Origin: Escherichia phage vB_EcoM_WFL6982
Direction: 5' to 3' (one strand)
Length of the DNA stretch: 64,000 nucleotides
Sequence record: MK373774.1
Shown here: piece after piece, positions 1-63,816 of the stretch
Layout of the letters: each line of letters starts with the position of its first letter
Numbering within the stretch: the stretch's first letter is position 1
Made by a program: the position numbers and the translations under genes
The notes under the pieces: model-generated
The model's database searches: none
What the model was told of the DNA's origin: nothing
The model's input: only the letters and a program-made list of their open reading frames with translations

Positions 1-2214
1 TTATTTGGCCGCTTCCACGGCCTTCATGAATTTAACGATTTGAGCGACCTGTTCTTTGGAAAGAGTACCACGTCGTCCCATGTAGTCTGACACAATATGA
101 TAATTGGTTTCGAATTCAATAACCATTTTATCATCATTATCGTAAGCATTATCTTTAAGCTTATCGAAAATTTTAGCACACAATTCTAACTTCTTATTCA
201 GGTCTCTGTTATCAGCACCTGCGAATCGATTCCATCCCCAGCGATTATTTACTGTTGAGAGTTTTGCAAAGTCTTTACTGATTTCTTTGTTCTTAGAGCT
301 AAAATACTTACTAAGGAAGTTAAGCTCTTCATTACGAGTAATATGGTTTAGATAGGGCTGTGCTCTACGACTTGGTGATACATACTCATCATAATCTACT
401 TTATCGATTAGCGTAATATAGTCATTAATTGATTTTTCGAACAAGCATTCTACTTCGCCAAGTTTACGAACTTTCTTAGCAATCTGTGGGCGAACTACAG
501 TGAACTCTTTAATACCTGACAAATCAGCAATACGAGTCAAGAAATTAGAGTCATAGTTTAACCAACCTTTATCTGCGACAAGACATTCAGCATTAGAACG
601 ATTACGAATTACAACATAACCTTGAATCTCATCAGCTTTACTAGCCGGAATAAAGAGATCTTCTGATACCCAAACATCGTTTTCATTCTTAAAGAACCGA
701 TGAGCACTTGGGGATTTAGGACGAGGCTGCGATGAACGTTCTTTAACTTCAATCCATGGTTTAACTAATGCAAGAATTTCAGAGGTCTTATAAAATTTAA
801 GGCTATCACCAGCGAAAATAACCTTTAATCGTTCCAGAAGTTTCATTGCAACTTCATCTTCCGGGTTAATGAATAATACGCTACTACCCCGTCCAGAAGG
901 AACCTTATCAACGAGTGTTGATGCATCAGTGGAAGTCAAAGCATCGTTCAGAGCACGCATCATTGGTACGCGGCCTTTCACATCGTCAATAACGATATCA
1001 ATATGCTTACGACTAATACCTAGCAGGCTATTAATTGAAATAGTTGCAGACGAGCTTCCGCTTTCACGAATACGACGAAGTCGTGGGTCTGAAACGATAT
1101 CATATACAACGCCAAGGTTACACCATTCAGGTCCCATTTTAAAACGTTTGTACAACTCAGAATAAGTTAGTTGTTCTTTAGAGTATTTCAGTGATTCAAT
1201 ATTAGAACCAGCTTTTTCCATATATTTACGAGCAGAGTAACCAAGAGAATCGATTTCACGGAATACATGACGTGGATATTCACAATCAATCCATTTCTTA
1301 GAATCTTCAGCAAATAATTTTGCATCGATTTCTGCAACGCGTTTATGGATATTTGCTACTGTACGTTTATCAAATGACAATGCTTCACGAGACGGGGCTA
1401 CATCTAGTTCACCCATAGGGAATTTAATATAAGCTGTAGTGCATCGCGTCATCATCCAGGTTTGTTCTTTAATAACACTTCCGATTGGATATACAATACC
1501 ACCATAAACAGCCATGATATTACCACGTTCACCCCATGGAGCTTCCTTGGCTAAATAAACATCATCGAATTCCGGGAAGTATTTGATATCTTTAACACCA
1601 CGAACTTCTGCAATATCGCCGAGAGGACGCATAACATAAGCAATTTCGGATGCGAACTTTTCAAAATCTTCTGGGTTAACAGGCACAACTACTTCAACGC
1701 CGGTTCGGTCATCAGGACCCATCTTATCTACAAAGGTTGGCTTAATTTGTGGACCACTGTCATCTTGATAAATTACATAACCACGAACTTCACCATTATG
1801 ATAAGAAGTAATGTTAAACGTATCAGTATATGCTAATGGAGCTTTAGAACCGAGACCGAAACCACCAATGAAATCGTTACTCGATGTTTTAGTTGAAGCA
1901 AAATATGAGTTATAGATTCCTGGCTCTTCGTCATTACCTCGAATGGTGAAATCGCTCATACCAGGACCAAAGTCTCGAACTACAAAACGTGGGTCTAAAC
2001 GACCTGGAGCCTGAACAATAAACTTATCAGTGCAACCATTAAGAATTTGTCCATCGATACAGTTTGTGATTAATTCACGTACACAAGCCAATTCTTTGTT
2101 TGTATAAAGGTCATTAGACAAAATCTTATAAACTTTGCTATTGCCTTGAATAGTGAATGCTGTGCTCTTACCGCCTGAACCAATAATCGTTTCTTTAGCC
2201 GTTTCAATAATCAT
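1..2214 (-). CDS. rIIA: rIIA membrane-associated lysis-inhibition / prophage-exclusion protector protein
   Basis: 737-aa ORF with GHKL/Bergerat ATPase-like motif (DFGPGMS); size and position next to topoisomerase II gene as in T4 rIIA; stop codon at window bases 1-3. Confidence 0.85.
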   Translation of the reverse strand: MIIETAKETIIGSGGKSTAFTIQGNSKVYKILSNDLYTNKELACVRELITNCIDGQILNGCTDKFIVQAPGRLDPRFVVRDFGPGMSDFTIRGNDEEPGIYNSYFASTKTSSNDFIGGFGLGSKAPLAYTDTFNITSYHNGEVRGYVIYQDDSGPQIKPTFVDKMGPDDRTGVEVVVPVNPEDFEKFASEIAYVMRPLGDIAEVRGVKDIKYFPEFDDVYLAKEAPWGERGNIMAVYGGIVYPIGSVIKEQTWMMTRCTTAYIKFPMGELDVAPSREALSFDKRTVANIHKRVAEIDAKLFAEDSKKWIDCEYPRHVFREIDSLGYSARKYMEKAGSNIESLKYSKEQLTYSELYKRFKMGPEWCNLGVVYDIVSDPRLRRIRESGSSSATISINSLLGISRKHIDIVIDDVKGRVPMMRALNDALTSTDASTLVDKVPSGRGSSVLFINPEDEVAMKLLERLKVIFAGDSLKFYKTSEILALVKPWIEVKERSSQPRPKSPSAHRFFKNENDVWVSEDLFIPASKADEIQGYVVIRNRSNAECLVADKGWLNYDSNFLTRIADLSGIKEFTVVRPQIAKKVRKLGEVECLFEKSINDYITLIDKVDYDEYVSPSRRAQPYLNHITRNEELNFLSKYFSSKNKEISKDFAKLSTVNNRWGWNRFAGADNRDLNKKLELCAKIFDKLKDNAYDNDDKMVIEFETNYHIVSDYMGRRGTLSKEQVAQIVKFMKAVEAAK

Positions 2215-44797: not shown

Positions 44798-45268
44798 TTA
44801 ATCATGTTTCCACACCCCATCGGTATTTGACCAAAGTCGCTGATTATCTGATCCTCGCCACAGCTTTTTAGTCGGAAGATTTTTCTCATACTTCCCATCA
44901 ATAATAACATCAACATATTTAAGCATTTCTAGCTGTTTAATATCTTCAAACTTATATCCTGTCCACAACCAAATGCTTTTATTAGGATAAAGATTTTTTA
45001 CTGTTTGAACAATGCAATGAATAACATCTCGGTTATCAGGATAGAGAGGGTCACCTCCGGTTATAGTTAATCCTTCTATATAATCATTATTCAAACATTC
45101 AATTAATTGTTCTAGTGTCTCTCCAGTGAATGGAATACCATTTCTAGCATTCCATGTTGATTTATTATAACACCCTTCGCATTTATGCAAACAACCCGTA
45201 ACGAAAAGAACGACCCTGCAACCAGGGCCATTCACAAAATCGCAAGGATAAAATCTATCATAATTCAT
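44798..45268 (-). CDS. nrdG: anaerobic ribonucleotide reductase activating protein (radical SAM)
   Basis: 156 aa; Cys-rich N-terminal block (GCLHKCEGC); T4 NrdG size and position. Confidence 0.9.
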   Translation of the reverse strand: MNYDRFYPCDFVNGPGCRVVLFVTGCLHKCEGCYNKSTWNARNGIPFTGETLEQLIECLNNDYIEGLTITGGDPLYPDNRDVIHCIVQTVKNLYPNKSIWLWTGYKFEDIKQLEMLKYVDVIIDGKYEKNLPTKKLWRGSDNQRLWSNTDGVWKHD

Positions 45269-47082
45269 TGGTGTTTAACCCTATGCATGATTTCTTTATT
45301 TTTACCGAGATTAAATCCGCGTTCGTTCGGATTTCCCAAATATCCGCATGTTCTTCTTATGGTGTTCATCTTTTTAGGATCAGTTTCTCCGCAAACTGAA
45401 CAAACAAATCCGTTTTCAGTAGGAGTCATTTCATGGGTACTTCCACATGTAAAACATTTATCTACTGGCATATTAACACCAAAATAATCTAAATGTTGTG
45501 CAGCATAATCCCAGACGGCCTCAAGTCCCTTTAAATTGTTTTTCATATCTGGAAGTTCAACATAAGAAATGTGACCGCCTGTCGCAATGAAATGATACGG
45601 CGCTTCACGAGAAATCTTTTCAAACGGAGTAATATTTTCTTCTACTGAAACATGGAAACTATTAGTGTACCAGCCTTTATCGGTAACATCTTTTACACTT
45701 CCATATTTTTCTGTATCGAGTTTACAGAAGCGATAACAAAGGTTTTCAGCAGGAGTAGAATACAAGCTAAAAGCAAATCCAGTTCTTTCGGTCCACTGTT
45801 TAAGATGAGCATTCATTTTAGTTAAAATTTCTTGCCCAATATCACGACCGACAAGAATATTCAATTCGTGAATACCAATGTATCCTAAAGACACTGAACT
45901 TCTACCGTTTTTAAATAACTCAATTATATCGTCATCAGGTTTAAGGCGAACCCCGAATGCACCTTCTTGGTAAAGAATAGGAGCAACAGTCGCTTTAACT
46001 CCTTTTAAGGAACTAATTCTACACATCAAAGCTTCAAAACACAGGTCCATTCGTTCGTTAAATAGCTCAACAAATTTCTGTTCATTGAACTGTGTTCCAA
46101 TATAAGAATCTAACGCAATACGAGGAAGATTCAGTGTTACAACACCAAGATTATTACGTCCATCAAGAATTTCATTACCAGTCGAATCTTTCCATACGCT
46201 CAAGAAACTACGGCAACCCATTGGAGAAACTGGAACTGAAGAACCGGTAATAGCTTTATTATTCTTAACCGAAATAATGTCAGGATACATTCTTTTGCTT
46301 GCACATTCTAACGCAAGTTGTTTAATATCATAGTTTGGATCATCTTTATAAAGATTAACACCTTCTTCAACAAACATAACAAGTTTAGGAAAAATAGGAG
46401 TTATTCCATCACGACCAAGACCTTTAATGCGGTTTTTAAGAATTGCCTTCTGAATCATTCGTTCAGTCCAGTCAGTTCCCGTACCAAATGTAATTGTTAC
46501 AAAAGGCGTTTGTCCGTTTGAACTAAAGAGAGTATTTACTTCGTATTCATAAGCTTGGAATGCGTCATAGACATCTTTTTCTGTTTTAGATTGAGCATAA
46601 TTCAACGCATCAGCGATTTGCCATTTTTCTGCATCTTCAACATGTTTAGCGTATGTGCGTTTAACATAAGGAGAAAGAACTTTATCTACATTCGCAAATG
46701 TAGTTCCGCCATACTGGTGTGAAGCAACTTGTGCGGTAATTTGTGCCATAATTGCAGTAGCAACACCAATAGATTTAGGCGTTTCAATTTGAGCATTGCC
46801 TAATTTAAATCCATTCTCAAGCATCCCCTTTAAATCGACTAAACAGCAATTGGTAAACGGAAGAGCAGGAGAATAATCAATATCATGCATGTGAATGATT
46901 CCGCTTTCATGCGCATTCATAATAAAAGACGGGACCATATTTTTGGCAATGTGTTTAGACACAATACCAGCCATAAGGTCCCGTTGAGTTGGAAAAACAC
47001 GAGAATCTTTATTAGCATTCTCGTTCAAAAGATCTTTATTAGTTTTATAAATTAATCCTTCAATTTCTTTTTCAATTTTCAT
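45265..47082 (-). CDS. nrdD: anaerobic ribonucleoside-triphosphate reductase (glycyl radical enzyme), no intron
   Basis: 605 aa; C-terminal Zn site CxxC..CxxC and glycyl-radical motif RTCGYLG; continuous ORF. Confidence 0.95.
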   Translation of the reverse strand: MKIEKEIEGLIYKTNKDLLNENANKDSRVFPTQRDLMAGIVSKHIAKNMVPSFIMNAHESGIIHMHDIDYSPALPFTNCCLVDLKGMLENGFKLGNAQIETPKSIGVATAIMAQITAQVASHQYGGTTFANVDKVLSPYVKRTYAKHVEDAEKWQIADALNYAQSKTEKDVYDAFQAYEYEVNTLFSSNGQTPFVTITFGTGTDWTERMIQKAILKNRIKGLGRDGITPIFPKLVMFVEEGVNLYKDDPNYDIKQLALECASKRMYPDIISVKNNKAITGSSVPVSPMGCRSFLSVWKDSTGNEILDGRNNLGVVTLNLPRIALDSYIGTQFNEQKFVELFNERMDLCFEALMCRISSLKGVKATVAPILYQEGAFGVRLKPDDDIIELFKNGRSSVSLGYIGIHELNILVGRDIGQEILTKMNAHLKQWTERTGFAFSLYSTPAENLCYRFCKLDTEKYGSVKDVTDKGWYTNSFHVSVEENITPFEKISREAPYHFIATGGHISYVELPDMKNNLKGLEAVWDYAAQHLDYFGVNMPVDKCFTCGSTHEMTPTENGFVCSVCGETDPKKMNTIRRTCGYLGNPNERGFNLGKNKEIMHRVKHQ

Positions 47083-58504: not shown

Positions 58505-58687
58505 TTATAGTGAATTCACGTAGTCAATGAGTTCTTGTTCTTTCCTGTCAAATGATTCCATCAATGCGTGATATTCTTCGTCCGTCAAAGGAGCATATTC
58601 ATCATACGCATTGGTGGCTGATTGTTCATCCAATAGGTCATGGATAAGTTCGAATAGTTTAGCTTTCTCTTCTTTAGTCAATTTCAT
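58505..58687 (-). CDS. hypothetical small acidic protein
   Basis: 60-aa ORF. Confidence 0.45.
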   Translation of the reverse strand: MKLTKEEKAKLFELIHDLLDEQSATNAYDEYAPLTDEEYHALMESFDRKEQELIDYVNSL

Positions 58688-59178
58688 TTAGGTTCCCAAT
58701 CAACAATCACAATTTCTAGTTTAGTGGAATATGTATCTAAAATCTCTTCGATGACGTCCCAGTTTCCACCGCCAATACCTGCACCAATTCTTGGCATATA
58801 AATTACAGGCTTTGTTATCTTATTCTTTCCGAATTCATTTAATTCTATTATACAATTCATTAAAGCAGAGTACTCAAAATTAGGTCCCGGCTCAAACTGT
58901 GTATAAAGATTAAAGCAATAAGCTTTATGGGTCTTAAAATATTTTTCATAAACCGAATAAGTCCCGAGTTTAGACTTGTCTCCGAATTCGGTTTGAAGTT
59001 TATCGGCTTCTAAAATTTTTGGATAAGCCTTTGCTAATTGGCCTGCTACACCGGCGCCCATTGTATGAAAACAATTACACCCATGAGCAATATTATTACC
59101 TTTAGAAAACAGGGCGACAATATCGCCCTTGATATAGTTTTTAATCACTTGCTGCAAGTCCTCTATTATAAGAGTCAA
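58684..59178 (-). CDS. macro-domain protein (ADP-ribose binding / processing)
   Basis: 164 aa; GDIV..N..MGAGVAGQL and IGAGIGGG blocks match macro-domain diphosphate-binding loops. Confidence 0.65.
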   Translation of the reverse strand: MTLIIEDLQQVIKNYIKGDIVALFSKGNNIAHGCNCFHTMGAGVAGQLAKAYPKILEADKLQTEFGDKSKLGTYSVYEKYFKTHKAYCFNLYTQFEPGPNFEYSALMNCIIELNEFGKNKITKPVIYMPRIGAGIGGGNWDVIEEILDTYSTKLEIVIVDWEPK

Positions 59179-59488
59179 CTAGACGGTCCACCATAGAATT
59201 GCATGCTGCCTTATCTTTAGGTTCCGCCACCGAGCATTCTAATATTTGCCATTTTTTATAGTATCTTTTAATTAAGGTAGACGCCTTGAACCTACTAGAC
59301 GCCCCGTCTTTTTCTCCGTCTTTATACGCGTATAACAATTTTTGTGAAAAATCTACTTTACACTCTTGACTTTTACCACAATAATCAGACGCCGTTCTGT
59401 TTGTATACTCCGTTACATCAGTATATGTAGTATTAGCAAGAGCGTTAAATGAAACCAAGCTAACTATTAAAGCCAACATTTTGGTCAT
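59141..59488 (-). CDS. secreted/periplasmic hypothetical protein
   Basis: 115 aa; signal peptide MTKMLALIVSLVSFNALA. Confidence 0.45.
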   Translation of the reverse strand: MTKMLALIVSLVSFNALANTTYTDVTEYTNRTASDYCGKSQECKVDFSQKLLYAYKDGEKDGASSRFKASTLIKRYYKKWQILECSVAEPKDKAACNSMVDRLVDSYNRGLAASD

Positions 59489-60027
59489 TCTTTTATTTCC
59501 AGTAGTTTATTTGATTTAAGGTAATTAGCCTTTTCTAGGACTTCAGAAGCATATTTACTTCCGGCACTTGTCTTCCATCCCGCATTATATGAGGATATAG
59601 CTTTTCTTATATCCCCGTTATGTATATTTAACCAATAAGAAAATTCGATATAAGCCCATCTGGCTGAATTAGACCGCTTAGATAGCATTTTCTTAATTTG
59701 GGCATCAGTCATATTATAACCAAGCTGGTTAATTCTTGCCCTCATTGTCGGTAGATAATTTTGGAACATTCCATACGCATGGTGACCTTTCTTATCTTTA
59801 AGATTAATACCGGCAGATGATTCCTGCCATAGTATTGCGGCCATTATGTATCCAAGTCCTTTCTTATGCATATTTTCATGCGTTTTAAATTTTCCATCCT
59901 TAGAAAACTGTTCCCCAAACTGATAAGCATAATTCAAGTTATCGAGTTGGACATTACTAAAAGTATGCTCGGAGCTATGTGCTGATAATGAAAGAGCAAA
60001 TAGACCAGCGAGTAGTGCTTTTCTCAT
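59485..60027 (-). CDS. lytic transglycosylase (SLT) domain protein with signal peptide
   Basis: 180 aa; signal peptide; QESS catalytic-Glu context and AYGMFQ, SxYNAG blocks. Confidence 0.6.
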   Translation of the reverse strand: MRKALLAGLFALSLSAHSSEHTFSNVQLDNLNYAYQFGEQFSKDGKFKTHENMHKKGLGYIMAAILWQESSAGINLKDKKGHHAYGMFQNYLPTMRARINQLGYNMTDAQIKKMLSKRSNSARWAYIEFSYWLNIHNGDIRKAISSYNAGWKTSAGSKYASEVLEKANYLKSNKLLEIKE

Positions 60028-60551: not shown

Positions 60552-60850
60552 TACTCTTTGAAAGGAATTAACTTTTTAACTGCTTTAGATACTTCGTCAC
60601 GAACCTGGTGGAAGTTCTTGAGCTGTTCAAGGCGTTGTTCGTAATACGCAATCTCATCTTCTTCAAGACAATCGTCAGCGTCTTCTTTCAGATATGCCTT
60701 GTACTCATTAAAGAGGGCCCATAGGCGATTCTCAAAGTCATCAAGGCTTTGAATTTTCTTGTGCTTCGGAACAAGGCCAAAAGGATTGCTTTCAGTTATG
60801 CGTCTAGATGCTTCATAATGAGTTCCAAAGCCTGATAGGATTTGAGCCAT
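60551..60850 (-). CDS. hypothetical protein
   Basis: 99-aa ORF. Confidence 0.45.
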
Positions 60851-61116
60851 TAGTATTTTTCCTCAGGTCGAAATACTGCACGACAGGCCCACATGCTGGC
60901 TTCTTTTAGATGTTGCTTAGCATACTTAAGAGCCTGCACTGCATCCATATCTTCTTTGGTTTGTTGCTCTGTTTCGTTTTCTTTCAAGATATATGCTTCT
61001 TCAATCAGAGCATCAAACAACAATCCAAGACGGACTTCTGCATCTTTAATAGCGTTCACTTTACCGATTTTATCATCGGTATGCGGCTTGTAGCCTTTGA
61101 TGTCTTCAATCGACAT
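60850..61116 (-). CDS. hypothetical protein
   Basis: about 88 aa from internal ATG (MSIEDIKGY..). Confidence 0.4.
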
Positions 61117-61330
61117 AAGGAATTTCCTCATCGGTGGCAAGGTCATATTCGACCAATTGGATAGGCTCATTAATACCATATCCACGTACAGTGATATCAG
61201 TTGCCGGATAGTTTCCAGTAATATCACCCATTCTAAATGCTTCAATGAATGATTGCTCGCCTGAGCAACTAAACCAGGCGGCAAAACATTTTAAAACATC
61301 TTCAGACCCTTCTATAATCAATTTAGCCAT
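61106..61330 (-). CDS. hypothetical acidic protein
   Basis: 74-aa ORF. Confidence 0.4.
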   Translation of the reverse strand: MAKLIIEGSEDVLKCFAAWFSCSGEQSFIEAFRMGDITGNYPATDITVRGYGINEPIQLVEYDLATDEEIPYVD

Positions 61331-61692
61331 TATAGACTCTCAGTAAAGGTACGAGCGATAACGTCACGCTGCTGTCCCGGAGTCAGAGAGTTAAAGCGAA
61401 CTGCATAACCGGATACACGGATGGTCAACTGCGGATATTTTTCTGGATGCTTAACTGCATCTTCCAGAGTTTCACGACGCAGAACATTAACGTTCAGGTG
61501 TTGACCACCTTCAATTTTAACTTTAGGTTGATGTTCAATTTCAATTTCACGGGCATTCAAACCGTAGAAAATTTCCGGGTCTACAATAGCGTCTTCTTTA
61601 AAAGTCTTAGAGACAATAATCCGGGCTTGAGTACCGTCTTCAAAATAAATAGTGCCTTTATGTGCACCTTCAAGAATTTGATATGCTTTCAT
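61330..61692 (-). CDS. autonomous glycyl radical cofactor (GrcA/YfiD-like)
   Basis: 120 aa; C-terminal about 60 aa nearly identical to E. coli GrcA as recalled, including glycyl radical motif RVSGYAV. Confidence 0.9.
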
Positions 61693-61698
61693 ATAACC

Positions 61699-62007
61699 TC
61701 AATTAGAAAATAAATTTATCCAAGATTTTTCTTTAATCAAAAATGGGTCGGAATTAAACGCCATTAAACTTTGAGTGATTAATCCCTTAAATGGCCCATC
61801 AATAAATTCCATTTTGAAATGCGGAATACTAGTCATCAACCGTGCATTAGGAGCAGTACAAAGAACCTGCTGCCCTGCGAACGGACCTTTAGTCAAACGG
61901 TATCGTTTAGGTTTAAAATGGTAAATCTCGTAATTTTTTACAAGGGCCCTTTTATTGCATACTGGGCTGTTATAACAATATTCAAAAACTTCAATAGTGG
62001 TCATCAT
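61699..62007 (-). CDS. hypothetical protein
   Basis: 102-aa ORF. Confidence 0.45.
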   Translation of the reverse strand: MMTTIEVFEYCYNSPVCNKRALVKNYEIYHFKPKRYRLTKGPFAGQQVLCTAPNARLMTSIPHFKMEFIDGPFKGLITQSLMAFNSDPFLIKEKSWINLFSN

Positions 62008-63375: not shown

Positions 63376-63786
63376 TTAGTAAATTGATTTACCATAGTAT
63401 TTGTACCAAGTCGGACGTTGAGCAATTTTTTCATCTAAGCGTGCTTGACTTATCGCAATGGACGCTTCGGACGGGACGTAATTATTACGAAATTCGGCAG
63501 GGATGTCGGAAATATCCTGGACAGTCGTGTCCTTGATTTTGAAACCACGTTTCAAGCATTCAGCGATTAGCTCGTTTTGACGTAAACGTAAAAATTCGAG
63601 TTTGTCGTAAAAGAATGTTACGTGACCTGTGCCTAAGATAAATGTTGGAGAGATTTTAAAATCCTTTACACGTTTACCGTTTTGAACATGTTTACGGACT
63701 GCACCAAATACGCGTGGTAATTCACGATACTCAGCCATAAGATGTTGGTCGGCCAGTTCAGAAACAAGTGTTAAATTGATACGGGT
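63376..63786 (-). CDS. denV: endonuclease V (pyrimidine dimer DNA glycosylase)
   Basis: start moved to MTRINLT (ATG 63786); near-colinear with T4 DenV as recalled. Confidence 0.95.
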
Positions 63787-63816
63787 CATAATTTCCTCCA
63801 AGTAGTTGATGAATGT

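Follow-up and report, generated by a model that had tools for sequence, protein, structure and literature searches.

Escherichia phage vB_EcoM_WFL6982 (MK373774.1; Straboviridae, Tevenvirinae, Mosigvirus) carries, within the 64,000-nucleotide stretch of its DNA analyzed here (the window), a small gene on the minus strand (61330..61692) which appears to be a mosaic of old phage sequence and DNA of its bacterial host. We read this gene as the Mosigvirus ortholog of phage T4 vs.6, the gene for Y06I, encoding a protein of the spare-part GrcA/YfiD type and containing a patch of Escherichia grcA DNA, and we put the probability of this reading at roughly 0.85. Both the gene and the function proposed for it have been described before and add nothing new. 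Finding the gene is ordinary; the host-matched patch is of moderate interest for evolution and belongs to a familiar class of observation, comparable with that in cyanophage psbA. No earlier description of the mosaic was found in the literature searched, which did not cover key subscription papers, so a prior mention is possible. The open reading frame (ORF) has a 100% match at the same coordinates in MK373775.1 (Escherichia phage vB_EcoM_WFK), where it bears the locus tag WFK_00115 and is annotated as a hypothetical protein; in all our comparisons "WFK" denotes the window copy.

Evidence for a host-derived patch

A first-pass annotation of this gene, made from the sequence alone, had noted that the C-terminal 60 or so residues, including the motif RVSGYAV, are nearly identical to those of E. 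coli GrcA. Alignment with the host gene bears this out at a level far beyond chance, with residues 61-120 matching GrcA 68-127 at 59/60 positions (E106G being the sole difference) and residues 57-120 at 60/64. As these 60 residues are almost invariant in bacteria, with a non-synonymous divergence (dN) of 0-0.03 across 24 genera (Escherichia through Haemophilus) against a largely saturated synonymous divergence (dS) of 0.36 to >2, amino-acid likeness to the host is uninformative on recency.

At the DNA level, identity to E. coli grcA is 49% on one side of codon 57 and 93% on the other. Codons 1-60 (61513..61692, minus strand) make up a phage-type N half, of which codons 1-56 share 18/56 amino acids and 83/168 nucleotides with E. 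coli grcA; the N half is about 32% identical to the host protein, is 7 residues shorter and differs by four indels. Codons 61-117 (61342..61512, minus strand), equivalent to the structured glycyl-radical domain at YfiD residues 68-124, form the putative host-derived conversion tract with 166/171 identical nucleotides. The last three codons and stop (61330..61341, minus strand) mark the 3' edge of the tract and are again phage-type, reading GAG AGT CTA as in Slopekvirus 05F, where all bacteria have GAA AGC CTG.

Several T-even phages match the host even more closely, with 171/171 bases in RB14 and in two T-evens from IMG/VR (L090 and L092, one from each of the genera Mosigvirus and Tequatrovirus) and 170/171 in T4; the window tract has thus drifted from E. 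coli by five nucleotides and that of T4 by one. Synonymous divergence between these phage tracts and E. coli is 0.07-0.17, compared with 0.36 between E. coli and Citrobacter, 1.02 for Salmonella and 0.7-1.0 for Klebsiella. Three control phages from IMG/VR (L100-L102) encode exactly the same 60 residues as E. coli without a patch, and their DNA is only 82.8% identical to that of E. coli at a dS of about 2; at this control rate the probability of 171 identical bases is about 1e-14. In a triplet breakpoint test with E. coli and Slopekvirus as parents, informative sites in RB14 favored E. coli by 31:0 in the tract vs. 23:48 outside it (Fisher p=1e-11), and the window copy gave 29:1 vs. 27:47 (Fisher p=3e-9). 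A neighbor-joining tree of the tract nests the T-even phages within Escherichia in 192/200 bootstraps. The RB14 tract is at least 99% identical in 5,156/5,432 E. coli records, while 642 phage records, including the reference T4, are at least 95% identical to the E. coli tract. When the whole window was compared by megablast with 5,426 complete E. coli genomes, a single match was returned, the grcA tract at about 61322-61514, which was present in every genome; no other E. coli-like DNA was found in the window against these genomes.

Host-level DNA identity, phage-type bounds within a single ORF and a position closer to the host than sister taxa coincide in this tract, and codons 61-117 are best described, on these comparisons, as a patch of Escherichia grcA DNA within an old, diverged phage gene. 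The donor would be grcA and not pflB, since the tract is 97-100% identical to the former and 80% to the latter. The first-pass annotation had offered recent acquisition or strong constraint as explanations of the likeness; both apply, in a mosaic, with constraint acting on the 60 residues and recent E. coli DNA at codons 61-117, but recency does not extend to the old N half or to the gene as a whole. The patch probably arose by homologous (homeologous) recombination between the phage gene and fragments of the host chromosome, which would be possible because constraint on the protein keeps about 80% DNA identity between this domain and the host gene. Recombination of T4 with homologous plasmid inserts is an established practice.

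Direction of transfer, age of the gene, and alternative origins

The bacterium is the apparent donor, with DNA passing from grcA to the phage. This is argued by the similar dS of the two halves of E. coli grcA to other enterics (0.36 for the C half and 0.57 for the N half against Citrobacter, 1.02 and 0.80 against Salmonella), by the presence of the tract at the grcA locus in every one of the 5,426 E. coli genomes, by leucine codons of host type (4/5 CTG in the tract vs. 10.8% CTG in the phage overall) and by the synonymous differences of the window tract from E. coli, 4/4 of which are GC>AT and consistent with decay toward phage composition. The N half tells of a longer history. Four indels and a 13-residue motif are common to this half in Tequatrovirus, Mosigvirus, Jiaodavirus, Slopekvirus, Pseudotevenvirus and Karamvirus, and an alignment of these six genera places the window protein, with its phage-type N half and total of 120 residues, among them. 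Between the window copy and RB14 the N half has a dN of 0.058 and a dS of 0.38, and the resulting dN/dS of about 0.15 indicates purifying selection. Shared indels and purifying selection together suggest that the gene is old in these phages and that the radical domain alone was replaced; the gene as a whole would therefore not be a recent capture, with the N half and last three codons belonging to an old Straboviridae lineage.

Other origins for the host-like stretch can be weighed against the same data. Purifying selection on the protein could in principle account for the likeness without any recent DNA exchange, and the near-invariance of the last 60 residues throughout Enterobacterales and Pasteurellaceae lends it some appeal; it is nonetheless already contradicted, and we consider it highly improbable, given that the control phages keep the same residues at a dS of about 2, that T-evens are 97-100% identical to E. 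coli even at the non-optimal codons GTA, GCA, CAT, TAT, TTT and AAG, and that the tract has sharp edges at both ends and a host-matched counterpart in Klebsiella phages. Recent capture of the whole gene from E. coli, followed by very fast divergence of its N half, would fit with that half still being detectably homologous to GrcA (HMMER aligns residues 21-120 with GrcA 27-127). However, the N half has reached saturation at third positions relative to E. coli (22/56 identical), Slopekvirus, Pseudotevenvirus, Karamvirus and Jiaodavirus have the same phage-type N half, four indels included, joined to C halves unlike that of E. coli, and the gene ends in three codons of phage type, all of which leaves such a capture with very little probability. 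Identity alone has no direction, and E. coli might have obtained the 3' half of its grcA from a T-even phage; yet the E. coli C half diverges from other enterics in step with the species tree, is no outlier against its Escherichia and Citrobacter relatives and has a dS like that of the N half, and with the universal grcA locus, the CTG-rich codons and the GC>AT differences this makes the reverse transfer extremely unlikely. Least credible is an artefact of assembly or contamination in which host reads entered the phage consensus: host DNA does occur in phage lysates, but the tract lies in frame within a phage ORF between phage-type flanks, is shared by 642 independent phage records, the T4 reference genome being one of them, and bears private substitutions that differ between phages, so that the chance of an artefact is close to negligible. 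We thus retain a patch of Escherichia grcA DNA in an old phage gene as the preferred account.

Recurrence in Klebsiella phages

A counterpart with a different host is seen in Kpn6N, a Klebsiella phage of the genus Jiaodavirus, whose tract matches Klebsiella grcA (GCA_021910665.1) at 164/171 bases and E. coli at 147/171. Over codons 61-101 it differs from that Klebsiella grcA by one base, it carries the rare Ser105 of the Klebsiella allele, and its G+C content at third codon positions (GC3), 0.61, is far above the 0.23 of the N half. Jiaodavirus and Klebsiella form a clade in the tract tree in 176/200 bootstraps, and 110 phage records are at least 95% identical to the Klebsiella tract, compared with about 87% for E. 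coli phages. E. coli-type tracts in Tequatrovirus and Mosigvirus and Klebsiella-type tracts in Jiaodavirus thus each match their own host, and at least two independent host-matched transfers are indicated by these sequences. A single ancient capture followed by co-divergence is excluded by the zero distance to a present host allele.

No recent patch was found in Slopekvirus, Pseudotevenvirus, Karamvirus, T5-like, rV5-like, Aeromonas or Vibrio phages when compared with 81 sampled bacterial species, a panel from which the true hosts may be missing. The GrcA proteins of T5-like Demerecviridae and of rV5-like, Aeromonas and Vibrio phages share the conserved C-terminal domain and have a short variable N-terminal part, but their tracts are only 63-83% identical in nucleotides to every sampled bacterial grcA, with dS saturated. 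Two further candidates were rejected. H101 (116 kb, T5-sized, with a 100% E. coli tract) had been considered as a third independent event and is an incomplete Tequatrovirus record. The IMG/VR contig L117 (UViG_2706794630_000006), considered as a Yersinia-phage patch at 91% identity to Yersinia grcA, is classed as viral but has a grcA of bacterial type; the product begins MITGIQITKA..., which is Yersinia-like and not the phage version, and the DNA is probably of host or prophage-flanking origin.

Some other records encountered in these searches deserve mention. L115 (IMG/VR UViG_2974754850, 167 kb) is Jiaodavirus-like, and its grcA at 1501..1859 has a tract identical to Klebsiella grcA at 163/171 bases; its N half is broken by a 1-nt frameshift, due either to sequencing error or to decay into a pseudogene. 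L037 (NZ_JBQPOM010000029.1), labelled as the Gram-positive Vagococcus sp. WN89Y, encodes an enterobacterial-type GrcA 91% identical to that of E. coli and is probably contaminated or mislabelled. A copy of grcA also lies on a 276-kb replicon of Klebsiella sp. WOUb02 labelled plasmid unnamed4 (L028).

Taken across these genera, it is somewhat better than an even bet that virulent T4-like phages have the glycyl-radical domain of their GrcA gene rewritten time and again from the grcA of the current host, E. coli in Tequatrovirus and Mosigvirus and Klebsiella in Jiaodavirus. Such overwriting may be adaptive, matching host-specific residues, or a neutral side effect; residues E/L77 and K/E81, candidates for selection, follow the E. 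coli-type vs. Klebsiella-type GrcA. A parallel comes from cyanophages, in which host-like DNA patches have reportedly been seen in the host-derived metabolic genes psbA and hli of T4-like lytic phages (Zeidner et al., 2005; Sullivan et al., 2006), implying repeated exchange between host and phage copies. The grcA patch differs in gene, host group and ecology, and also in that it equals one structural domain, can be as much as 100% identical to the allele of the present host, and matches the respective host in two groups of enterobacterial phages.

Within the T-evens, the base alleles of the tract do not differ between Mosigvirus and Tequatrovirus (0/171), whereas 18-20/180 bases differ in the N half (Fisher p=5e-6) and the genes flanking vs.6 are 64-84% identical. 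The last three codons vary (61333..61341 in the window, with equivalents in L169, L092 and L094), being GAA-AGT-TTG in T4, GAG-AGC-TTG in L094 and GAG-AGT-CTG in L092, compared with GAA-AGC-CTG in E. coli. That different terminal codons are in the E. coli state hints at several events with patchy 3' ends.

The gene product and its predicted role

The first-pass annotation had called a GrcA/YfiD-type gene at 61330-61692, and the call stands. The program-made ORF list gives a complete frame from ATG to TAA of 120 codons and 120 residues on the minus strand. Pfam Gly_radical (PF01228) scores 66.4 bits (cut-off 22.2) over residues 60-101, reaching the end of the profile, and among solved structures E. 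coli GrcA ranks first (6OWR, E=1.8e-41) and the C-terminus of PflB second (E=2.8e-25). Among NCBIfam models the GrcA equivalog TIGR04365 is by far the best family, with GrcA2 and GrcA3 scoring lower. The glycyl radical motif RVSGYAV occupies residues 92-98 (61399..61419, minus strand), as read from the translation and from HMMER alignment to GrcA and to PflB 696-759, and the radical glycine is Gly95 (codon 61408..61410), which aligns with GrcA Gly102 and PflB Gly734. The product is a small stand-alone glycyl radical domain protein with its own ribosome-binding site and stop, as expected of GrcA/YfiD proteins (InterPro IPR011140, NCBIfam TIGR04365), and it has the RVSGYAV loop, the C-terminal helix and the homology to PflB that mark this group. 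E. coli GrcA/YfiD (P68066; NMR structure 6OWR) is likewise a stand-alone protein of about 14 kDa with the same loop and helix, and the two proteins would be expected to share the partners PflB and PflA. PflB itself has 759 residues, and its C-terminal domain (696-759) shares the fold element and motif with the window protein over 64 residues.

Orthology to T4 is supported by sequence and position alike. T4 Y06I (vs.6, NP_049730; RefSeq name "autonomous glycyl radical cofactor GrcA") also has 120 residues, of which 111/120 are identical to the window protein, and likewise joins this phage-type N half to the E. coli-type tract; of the nine differences, eight lie in or near the N half and the other is the private E106G of the window protein. 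The gene lies in the block denV - vs.8 - vs.7 - vs.6 - vs.5 - vs.4 - vs.3 - regB - vs.1 - vs - tk.4, in the same order in RB14 and T4, and vs.6 stands between the vs.7 and vs.5 homologs on the same strand in MK373775.1, RB14, T4, Kpn6N and KMB19. Relatives of the gene are widespread, with tblastn matches to its product in 1,588 phage records that include T4-like, T5-like, rV5-like, Aeromonas and Vibrio phages.

The function of the T4 protein is known from biochemistry. Both E. coli YfiD and T4 Y06I are radicalised by the pyruvate formate-lyase (PFL) activating enzyme, and PFL cleaved by oxygen regains activity with either of them in vitro (Wagner et al., 2001, pmid 11444864), according to the passages on that work in Andorfer et al. 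(2021, PMC8683613). These two remain the only validated spare-part proteins (PMC8683613). In YfiD, residues 1-60 are disordered and raise binding to cleaved PFL and its activation about fourfold, whereas residues 61-127 form the structured domain. The phage N half can be aligned with YfiD from residue 21 (a 12-residue phage stretch against ARCIVAKAGFAED, then REIEIE..P.V against REVPVE..P.V), with 18/56 residues identical and four indels. A repair role, as the first-pass annotation had suggested, is expected for the window gene because its T4 ortholog showed it in vitro. By analogy with YfiD and Y06I, active host PFL would be cut by oxygen at Gly734, the small phage protein would bind the cleaved PflB, the host radical-SAM activase PflA would place a radical on Gly95, and the phage C-terminal domain would stand in for the lost PflB C-terminus (696-759), restoring the conversion of pyruvate to acetyl-CoA and formate. 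Fermentative energy and the supply of acetyl-CoA might in this way be maintained in a micro-aerobic infected cell, and we infer that PFL repair benefits the phage under oxygen exposure during infection.

Two other roles come into question. The first-pass annotation had pointed to nrdD and nrdG as companions of this gene, and both are indeed carried in the window: nrdD, the anaerobic ribonucleotide reductase and the other glycyl radical protein of the phage, at 45265..47082 (minus strand; Pfam NRDD 2.5e-171 plus Gly_radical), and nrdG, the radical-SAM activase of NrdD, at 44798..45268 (minus strand; Pfam Fer4_12 2.3e-48 plus Radical_SAM). Their presence would suit a protein serving as a spare radical domain for phage NrdD, or having another role in nucleotide metabolism as proposed from the Pfam match alone (Nolan et al., 2006, PMC1524935). 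Sequence comparison nevertheless led us to reject this as very unlikely, as the vs.6 product has no significant similarity to phage NrdD (BLASTP E=4.6), the NrdD radical motif is RRTCGYLG and not RVSGYAV, the domain is 94-100% GrcA-like with PflB as its best full-length enzyme match, and T4 Y06I works with PFL and PFL activase in the account given in PMC8683613. The protein might instead be a decoy or modulator, for example one that titrates host PflA or occupies PflB to redirect pyruvate flux, with the N half altering binding. In YfiD this half controls how well cleaved PFL is bound and how efficiently activation proceeds, and it is the part in which the phages resemble each other yet depart strongly from the host protein. 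Restoration of PFL activity in vitro by the T4 ortholog, as PMC8683613 relates it, and a host-identical radical domain both fit a functional replacement part better, and we regard a decoy as quite unlikely and PFL repair as the expected role.

Points that weigh against the mosaic spare-part reading

A number of observations count against the reading of this gene as a spare-part GrcA with an Escherichia patch, or against parts of it. The tract is short at 171 nt, and not a single Escherichia-specific base was found in it in a search for positions whose E. coli base is present in <15% of 79 other species, so the case rests on haplotype, dS and tree. The codon-usage comparison that the first-pass annotation had proposed was informative only in part: leucine codon choice is the sole distinctive codon feature of the window tract, whose GC3 of 0.37 is no outlier for the phage (19% of segments are as high), as E. 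coli grcA is itself low in GC3. The window protein scores 155.7 bits, below the TIGR04365 equivalog cut-off of 170 bits, which we ascribe to the diverged phage N half, and it bears the private E106G change in its C-terminal helix. For the T-evens, the data do not distinguish repeated conversions from a single one that then spread between phages. The N half of the window gene (61513..61692) is also unusually like that of RB14 (L003 2501..2680), at 89.5% nucleotide identity and a dS of 0.38, compared with 64-84% and a dS from 0.76 to saturated for eight neighboring genes; host conversion leaves this likeness unexplained, and exchange between phages, started off at the shared tract, may be its source. 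Finally, an in vivo demonstration of benefit to the phage was not found in the literature searched.

At codon 106 (61375..61377), a GAA>GGA change private to the window phage replaces Glu with Gly within the otherwise invariant "LTPEQQRD" of the C-terminal helix, and Glu is found at this residue in the other T-evens examined and in most of the bacterial GrcAs sampled.

Gene neighborhood

The phage gene lies in an early-gene cluster, without the regulatory context of host grcA. A GAGG ribosome-binding site (Shine-Dalgarno; 61697..61700, minus strand) is read 4 nt upstream of the vs.6 ATG and shares bases with the TGA that ends the vs.7 homolog; at the other end vs.6 runs into the next gene, its stop and that gene's start being fused as TAATG. 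A scan for promoters and terminators around the gene gave no enrichment over shuffles (9 found vs. 10 expected) and is uninformative on expression.

Two genes downstream, the vs.4 homolog (60850..61116, minus strand), annotated as a hypothetical protein in the record, has a Pfam Acb2/Tad1 hairpin domain (1.4e-17) of the anti-CBASS/Thoeris cyclic-nucleotide sponge family. Neighbors at 58684..59148, 59485..60027 and 63376..63789 (all minus strand) are expected T4 early genes. These early-gene neighbors include the tk.4 macro-domain protein, vs.1, regB and denV endonuclease V, mostly labelled hypothetical in the WFK record; vs.1 has a weak match to an SLT transglycosylase (E=0.0013) under the Pfam cut-off.

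Significance

At the level of annotation, WFK_00115 is better named GrcA/vs.6 than "hypothetical protein." There is also a practical consequence, as grcA has been chosen as a conserved quantitative PCR (qPCR) typing marker for Straboviridae coliphages (PMC12845203, 2026). The conserved part of this marker matches the grcA of host E. coli at 97-100% of bases, so that host DNA carried over in lysates could be amplified and yield false positives, according to where the primers lie. For studies of gene exchange, the example illustrates that synonymous sites are needed to date a transfer when the protein is this constrained.

For the biology of these phages, the patch would offer a clean and datable case in which a virulent T-even genome acquired chromosomal DNA by homologous recombination, seen in two host-phage pairs; with the T-evens as the best system for genetics, the rate and the enzymes involved (UvsX/UvsY, gp46/47) are directly measurable with a marked host allele. 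If the domain is indeed overwritten repeatedly, a lytic phage that degrades the DNA of its host would evolve in concert with a host gene, and constraint on the protein would act as a ratchet that keeps the two copies recombinable.

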